Positions 62,749-63,270 of a stretch of 64,000 nt of DNA are shown piece after piece. The stretch lies in the NCBI RefSeq assembly GCF_036507355.1, contig NZ_AP027877.1. One strand, given 5' to 3'. The notes under the pieces were generated by a model. That model ran no database searches and had not been told where the DNA came from. It worked only from the letters and a program-made list of their open reading frames with translations. Position 1 is the stretch's first letter, and the number at the start of each line of letters is the position of its first letter. A program made the translations under genes and the position numbers. This DNA is from Escherichia coli (lineage in GTDB: Bacteria > Pseudomonadota > Gammaproteobacteria > Enterobacterales > Enterobacteriaceae).

Positions 62749-63099
62749 AATCTATTCGCCTTATATATGTCTGGAGGTTTTGAGGATGATGATTAATTAT
62801 TATCGCCAGAACGAAATGTGCACGAAAAATTGCTATAAGAATTGTGTCACTTTTATCATTGTGATATGATCACTTCGTCATTAATCTTATGATCGTTTAA
62901 ATAGTACCGCCAAATCACGCAACGAACTTTGCTGGATTCAGTTTATGCTGCTGTAAATCCGCTCGCAGTAAACCTTTCAGACGCTCCGTGATGTTATCAG
63001 TTGTTCTTTAAGCGTTTTGCTGGTGTACTCACTACAAACGAATTGCGAATCGAATCAATGTGAAACGGAAAGGTACAATCTCCCTTTTTTTAGTGTTAA

Positions 63100-63270
63100 C
63101 ATCGCTCAACCGGGTGGAAGGTGAGAGGTTAATGTCTTTCATTTGTGTACCTGATTGCGAACCAATTTAGCATTTGTTGGCTAGATGGTTTCGCAATGAA
63201 CTGTTAATAAACAAATTTTTCTTTGTATGTGATCTTTCGTGTGGGTCACCACTGCAAATAAGGATATAAA
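63100..63270 (+). promoter_or_regulatory. thrS promoter and leader/operator region (approximate bounds)
   Basis: Untranslated leader directly upstream of the thrS ATG; in E. coli this leader carries the ThrRS autoregulatory operator with tRNA-Thr anticodon-arm-like hairpins; individual stems were not resolved here. Confidence 0.5.

Follow-up and report, generated by a model that had tools for sequence, protein, structure and literature searches.

Translation of thrS in E. coli K-12 is governed by an operator in the mRNA leader that is already well known from the studies of Springer, Romby, Ehresmann, Moras, and co-workers. The operator is composed of four domains, and its hairpins are bound by ThrRS, which blocks the 30S subunit until the enzyme is displaced by tRNA-Thr (PMC11088916, PMC9976931, PMC3858243, PMC7373986). 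In rpsO/S15 and other ribosomal protein leaders, and in the yeast AspRS mRNA, a protein likewise binds a ligand-like structure in its own mRNA and lowers translation, although S15 holds the 30S subunit in place on a pseudoknot (entrapment), while ThrRS competes with it (displacement) (PMC3858243, PMC6524683). The T-box leaders of thrS and thrZ from Bacillus and other Firmicutes are also structured and couple expression to the balance of tRNA-Thr and ThrRS through tRNA-related recognition. In contrast with the E. coli leader, a tRNA mimic that is bound by the enzyme and controls translation initiation, these T-box leaders bind uncharged tRNA and act on transcription termination.

In the window analyzed here, a 64,000-nucleotide stretch of E. 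coli DNA, the thrS start codon was located at ATG 63271-63273 on the plus strand, based on the sequence and the RefSeq annotation of near-identical genomes, and the 11 nucleotides directly 5' of it (63260-63270) read AAGGATATAAA. The arpB ORF occupies 60850-62748 on the minus strand, with its first base at 62748, so that it diverges from thrS across a spacer of 522 bp (62749-63270), consistent with the initial annotation, which had placed a divergent arpB start about 520 bp upstream. The same annotation expected a ThrRS operator at about 63100-63270, and one was indeed found there, identical to that of K-12, with both hairpins folding and with covariation across Enterobacterales. Its description as directly downstream of the arpB start was, however, inaccurate, since 400-510 bp separate the two and the operator stands beside thrS. 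The features of the interval, read as the thrS operator and its surroundings, are as follows.

60850-62748, minus strand: arpB/espL1 coding sequence, from the ORF list, RefSeq, and Pfam; left boundary of the interval.
63094-63102, plus strand: probable thrS promoter, extended -10 element TGTTAACAT, read by eye and supported by conservation.
63109-63153, plus strand: 5'-proximal part of the leader, a predicted hairpin (-15.3 kcal/mol, z = -2.66) that is not described as part of the operator.
63154-63197 (-117 to -74), plus strand: operator domain 4, the second anticodon-arm mimic, from folds, covariation, and orthologue folds.
63198-63221, plus strand: operator domain 3, a single-stranded linker without a stable fold, with a U-rich 3' end, AAAUUUUUC.
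63222-63258 (-49 to -13), plus strand: operator domain 2, the anticodon-arm mimic adjoining the ribosome-binding site, from folds and covariation.
63259-63273, plus strand: operator domain 1, the Shine-Dalgarno (SD) sequence UAAGGA at 63259-63264 and the AUG at 63271-63273, from sequence.
63271-64000, plus strand: thrS coding sequence, first 243 codons, continuing past the end of the window, from the RefSeq annotation of near-identical genomes.

The arpB ORF is intact in the window (632 amino acids), with Pfam matches to the ShET2 N-terminal region (1.8e-46) and to ankyrin repeats (2.3e-08), and its counterpart in a 99.9% identical genome carries the RefSeq name "type III secretion system effector EspL1" (espL1). 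On the other side, the full-length ThrRS orthologue aligns to PDB 1qf6 over residues 1-642. The solved ThrRS structures also include, among the N-terminally truncated chains, 1kog, which we take to be the complex of ThrRS with domain 2. An 801-bp query spanning the interval found matches in 5,425 of 5,426 complete E. coli genomes, with the neighbors annotated as espL1 and thrS. The DNA immediately upstream of the thrS leader was observed to differ by strain and species (examples at loci L085, L028, and L004). Most E. coli have espL1 there, and E. coli FG92-1 (L085:1-1635), with an E. albertii-like leader (89.6% identity), has a gene for a P-loop NTPase. In S. arizonae the place is taken by a umuC-like ORF, and in many genera ydiY/yniD adjoins the leader directly.

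Comparison with K-12 MG1655 over 537 bp revealed nine differences, all of which fall in 62749-62985, the first 237 bp on the arpB side, and alignment of 62986-63285 (-285 to +15) showed 100% identity. These 300 bp without a difference span the promoter region and leader of thrS as well as its first codons. Since no K-12 differences occur across 62986-63285, the leader is base for base the defined ThrRS operator sequence, with the same four domains, CGU and UGU loops, SD, and start codon. The operators of the two genomes do not differ, in contrast with the DNA upstream, where arpB is intact in the window but annotated as a pseudogene in K-12. When the leader alone (63100-63270) was used as a query, it was recovered at 100% identity in MG1655. 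Of the 5,426 complete E. coli genomes, 5,424 contained it with at least 95% identity and 4,856 with at least 99%. The sequence and structural features of an E. coli-type thrS operator were all found, namely domain 2, domain 3, domain 4, the 5' leader position, and identity with K-12, and nothing in the sequence argues against this reading. We conclude that the leader is almost certainly the E. coli thrS translational operator, with domain 2 (63222-63258) and domain 4 (63154-63197) as its hairpins. The sequence identity, the hairpins, their loops, and the covarying conservation are observed directly, while ThrRS binding and competition would carry over from the published work on K-12.

The probable promoter lies immediately 5' of this leader. 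The extended -10 element is kept as TGTTA(A/C)CAT in E. coli, E. albertii, and S. enterica arizonae, and it ends 6-7 nt before 63109. This base corresponds to -162, which we take to be the thrS transcription start mapped in early work, presumably giving a leader mRNA of about 162 nt. A consensus promoter scan of 62600-63400 returned two promoter-like sites, both on the plus strand, against 2.1 expected by chance; neither was an arpB promoter, and the TGTTAACAT site was also not among them.

According to the initial annotation, the promoter elements of arpB and the control elements of thrS must lie in one shared interval, and it could be supposed that the thrS control elements physically overlap the divergent arpB/espL1 promoter, with the two genes co-regulated through the shared DNA. 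Sharing holds in the trivial sense that arpB and thrS diverge across a single 522-bp spacer. Beyond this, the thrS extended -10 and leader are confined to about 63094-63270, leaving about 345 bp (62749-63093) for arpB, and the promoter scan of 62600-63400 gave no minus-strand site. Nothing was identified in this arpB-side remainder by Rfam, by the promoter and terminator scans, or by a repeat search of 62749-63108. Moreover, arpB is missing or replaced upstream of the same leader in E. coli FG92-1, E. albertii, and S. arizonae and is a pseudogene in K-12, indicating that the thrS leader is independent of arpB. Because the same leader adjoins other genes in other strains and species, there is no evidence that arpB and thrS signals overlap, and we consider such an overlap very unlikely. 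The repeat search also returned one 10-nt inverted repeat, with arms at 62990-62999 (GATGTTATCA) and 63094-63103 (TGTTAACATC). The arms are 90% complementary and 94 nt apart, the second overlaps the probable thrS -10, and the repeat is probably due to chance.

Folding, alignment to the characterized operator, and inspection for anticodon-like loops had been proposed as checks on the operator in the initial annotation, and all three bore it out, the alignment through the K-12 identity given above. The minimum free energy (MFE) fold of 63109-63285 has an energy of -50.7 kcal/mol (z = -3.35 against 200 dinucleotide shuffles) and holds both anticodon-arm-like hairpins, at 63154-63197 and 63222-63258. 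Folded alone, domain 4 reaches -18.4 kcal/mol (z = -5.03), with none of 200 shuffles as good. It forms a two-part hairpin in which a lower stem is followed by a small asymmetry, an upper stem (UUUAGC/GCUAGA), and an 8-nt apical loop, AUUUGUUG, at 63172-63179, presenting the triplet UGU at 63175-63177 (-96 to -94). Domain 2 folded alone reaches -10.6 kcal/mol (z = -2.24) and consists of a lower stem (UUUGUA/UGCAAA), a bulged U, an internal CAC, an upper stem (GUGAUCU/GGGUCAC), and a 7-nt loop, UUCGUGU, at 63236-63242, with the triplet CGU at 63238-63240 (-33 to -31). Its limits agree with those of -49 to -13 reportedly given by Romby et al. in 1996. Between the two hairpins, the 24 nt of domain 3 (63198-63221) are unstructured when folded separately (z = 0.12), and the part of the leader 5' to domain 4 (63109-63153) is weakly conserved outside E. 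coli.

A U-rich tract, AAAUUUUUCUUU, is present at 63213-63224. Such a tract has been described as the upstream half of a split ribosome-binding site whose other half is the SD, given for thrS as UAAGGA (PMC3858243). The MFE fold additionally pairs the SD (AAGGAU) with AUUUUU, in contrast with published K-12 operator models, in which the SD is single stranded; the helix is weak and is only partly retained in the centroid. A mutation within domain 2 has also been described: a G-to-A SNP at MG1655 position 1,802,589, selected under borrelidin and ceftazidime, for which an effect on the operator was only hypothesized by the authors (PMC13148393). The SNP site corresponds to C-19 of the leader (63252 in the window), the last base of the internal CAC loop.

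The loops of both hairpins resemble anticodon loops of tRNA-Thr. In K-12, these loops are UUCGUAA for thrW (CGU), CUUGUAA for thrU (UGU), and UUGGUAA for thrT (GGU). The domain 2 loop, UUCGUGU, matches that of tRNA-Thr(CGU) at five of seven positions, being identical to thrW at positions 32-36, and the domain 4 loop has UUGU in common with the loop of tRNA-Thr(UGU).

To follow these elements across the order, we used 80 Enterobacterales thrS loci, ranging from Escherichia to Providencia, that were obtained from one ThrRS scan of species-representative genomes. Domain 2 and the ribosome-binding site were recognizable in all 80. In a MAFFT alignment of 81 leaders, 96% of the cells in domain 2 were paired, and 8 of its 13 pairs had changed on both sides; none of 500 shuffles reached its covariation score, and registers slid along the alignment were only 32-46% paired. 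G-32 and U-31 were invariant in these 81 leaders, as were the GGA of the SD and the ATG. Most leaders had C at position -33, and the few with U there carry a UGU triplet. Of the 80 loci, 40 showed an E. coli-like domain 4 hairpin (form A). Across 41 leaders of this form, 16 of the 17 domain 4 pairs had changed on both sides, and again none of 500 shuffles reached the covariation score. In the sequence alignment, the upper helix was 89% paired, and the lower helix lost its register in part among distant genera. When the orthologues were folded independently, most formed a two-part hairpin whose apical loop carried NGU (UGU, CGU, GGU, or AGU), the U of the triplet being the only invariant column and the G being nearly invariant. 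This retention of G-U in both loops above covarying stems is the pattern expected if selection maintains the identity rules of tRNA-Thr.

These data bear on whether the hairpins might be generic 5'-UTR structure, serving mRNA stability, for example, with a coincidental likeness to anticodon loops. The folding energy of domain 2 alone would be compatible with this possibility, as it is only modestly more stable than its shuffles, 7 of 200 of which are as good. Generic structure is, however, difficult to reconcile with the agreement of the domain 2 loop with tRNA-Thr(CGU), or with the strict or nearly strict conservation of G and U in both loops among Enterobacterales families over covarying stems. 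Published loop genetics at G-32/U-31 also point the opposite way, in that control passes to MetRS when the triplet is replaced by a Met anticodon (PMC9976931, PMC11088916, PMC7373986), and G-32 to A is reported to make this switch (PMC9976931, PMC11088916). We therefore regard a generic role as highly improbable. As a side observation on the same RNA, a GUGUAC(C/A) motif is common to form A and to the second leader form described below. Form A leaders carry UGUGUACC twice, just 5' of domain 4 and within the domain 4 5' strand, with the second copy degenerate in E. coli (UUGCGAACC; window sites 63144-63151 and 63155-63163), and in the second form helix P2 has the motif at its base (GGUACA/UGUACC).

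Attenuation and antitermination are common in the leaders of genes for aminoacyl-tRNA synthetases, and Phe_leader (RF01859) is found downstream of rplT in related loci, but it is hardly credible that this leader is a T-box of the Bacillus thrS type or a leader-peptide attenuator of the type found at pheST, downstream in the same cluster; both can be excluded because no Rfam family, T-box and leader families included, matches at E up to 1 within 58000-64000 and no terminator-like site occurs on either strand of 62600-63400. Neither a rho-independent terminator nor a conserved leader peptide was found in 63109-63270, and domain 2 directly abuts the SD rather than being placed before a terminator. 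The sequence also matches, without a difference, an operator for which experiments have demonstrated action on translation (PMC3858243, PMC11088916). The same Rfam scan matched no model to the leader as an operator, and thus gives no curated-family confirmation of it.

For the thrS operator in the window, the mechanism described for K-12 would apply as follows. When free ThrRS is in excess, the anticodon-binding domain of each subunit of the dimer would take one hairpin. Domain 2 abuts the SD, and the ribosome would need two elements, the SD/AUG and the U-rich tract that immediately precedes domain 2; bound ThrRS would therefore exclude the 30S subunit, and thrS translation would drop. tRNA-Thr would compete for the same site on ThrRS as the hairpins, and owing to this competition, thrS expression would be expected to track the balance between ThrRS and tRNA-Thr. 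The analysis of the window confirms an intact copy of this textbook regulatory RNA.

While comparing the 80 loci, we also observed that the other 40 differ from the E. coli form in all sequence upstream of about -50, which is non-homologous to form A (form B; L005:2339-2435, L047:2338-2434, L043, L082, and 36 other loci). They belong to Citrobacter, Klebsiella, Enterobacter, Serratia, Pectobacterium, Providencia, and other genera. They share domain 2, the SD, and the start codon with the window, and likewise have a second hairpin with a conserved loop G-U, located about 65 nt 5' of the triplet in domain 2. In contrast with the classical domain 4 of E. coli, this second hairpin is short, with the loop AGAGUGAA, and lies inside a three-helix junction, of which it forms the third helix in single-sequence folds. 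The loop has the consensus A-R-R-G-U-R-N-A, is closed by a conserved 6-bp hairpin in which five of six pairs are compensatory, and places its G-U at about -99/-98, compared to -95/-94 in E. coli, so that it is as far from the AUG as the loop of domain 4.

Profile HMMs of the two forms hit disjoint loci, with form A matching 32 loci and the window and form B matching 38, and all matches lay at about -117 to -75 on the thrS strand and nowhere else. In a plain MAFFT alignment of the form B leaders, helix P1 was out of register between groups, and RNAalifold recovered helix P3 only; the analysis of form B was accordingly based on a trimmed 19-sequence seed and a covariance model. In the seed, 91% of cells were paired, and 13 of 21 pairs had changed on both sides. 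The model matched 31 loci at full length, including genera outside the seed, and matched neither the window nor any form A locus. In the alignment fitted to the model, which leans towards the model, 19 of 21 pairs were compensatory. An Rfam scan of six form B loci left the leader unmatched and reported only the downstream Phe_leader.

The two forms alternate within Atlantibacter, Phytobacter, Superficieibacter, Cedecea, and Serratia, with homology between the members of such pairs starting at about -50, and where ydiY/yniD is shared upstream, homology is lost only between ydiY/yniD and -50/-70. Form B replaces form A in about half of the sampled species, at times among members of the same genus, and also in a single genome of Escherichia. 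The latter, SCPM-O-B-8794, is labelled E. coli and carries form B in the order ydiY-yniD-thrS without arpB/espL1 (L003:1-1146); its ThrRS is 99% identical, and it may represent a cryptic Escherichia lineage. Form B was found in none of the 5,426 complete E. coli genomes, in which only the last 50 nt match. We considered whether form A might have arrived together with the arpB/espL1 island and rejected this idea, given that form A stands beside other genes in FG92-1, E. albertii, and S. arizonae; the many genera with a ydiY neighbor also contradict it.

Based on these comparisons, we tentatively suggest, as a possibility that we hold at somewhat less than even, that the upstream half of the thrS control region, from the promoter through the second mimic to about -50, exists in Enterobacterales as two non-homologous, interchangeable forms. 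No description of the two leader forms was found in the literature library searched. Form B may also bind ThrRS, and if it does, the same dimeric repressor would be served by two independently built RNA scaffolds, each joined to one conserved domain 2. The second form could be of interest for work on the evolution of RNA operators for dimeric proteins.
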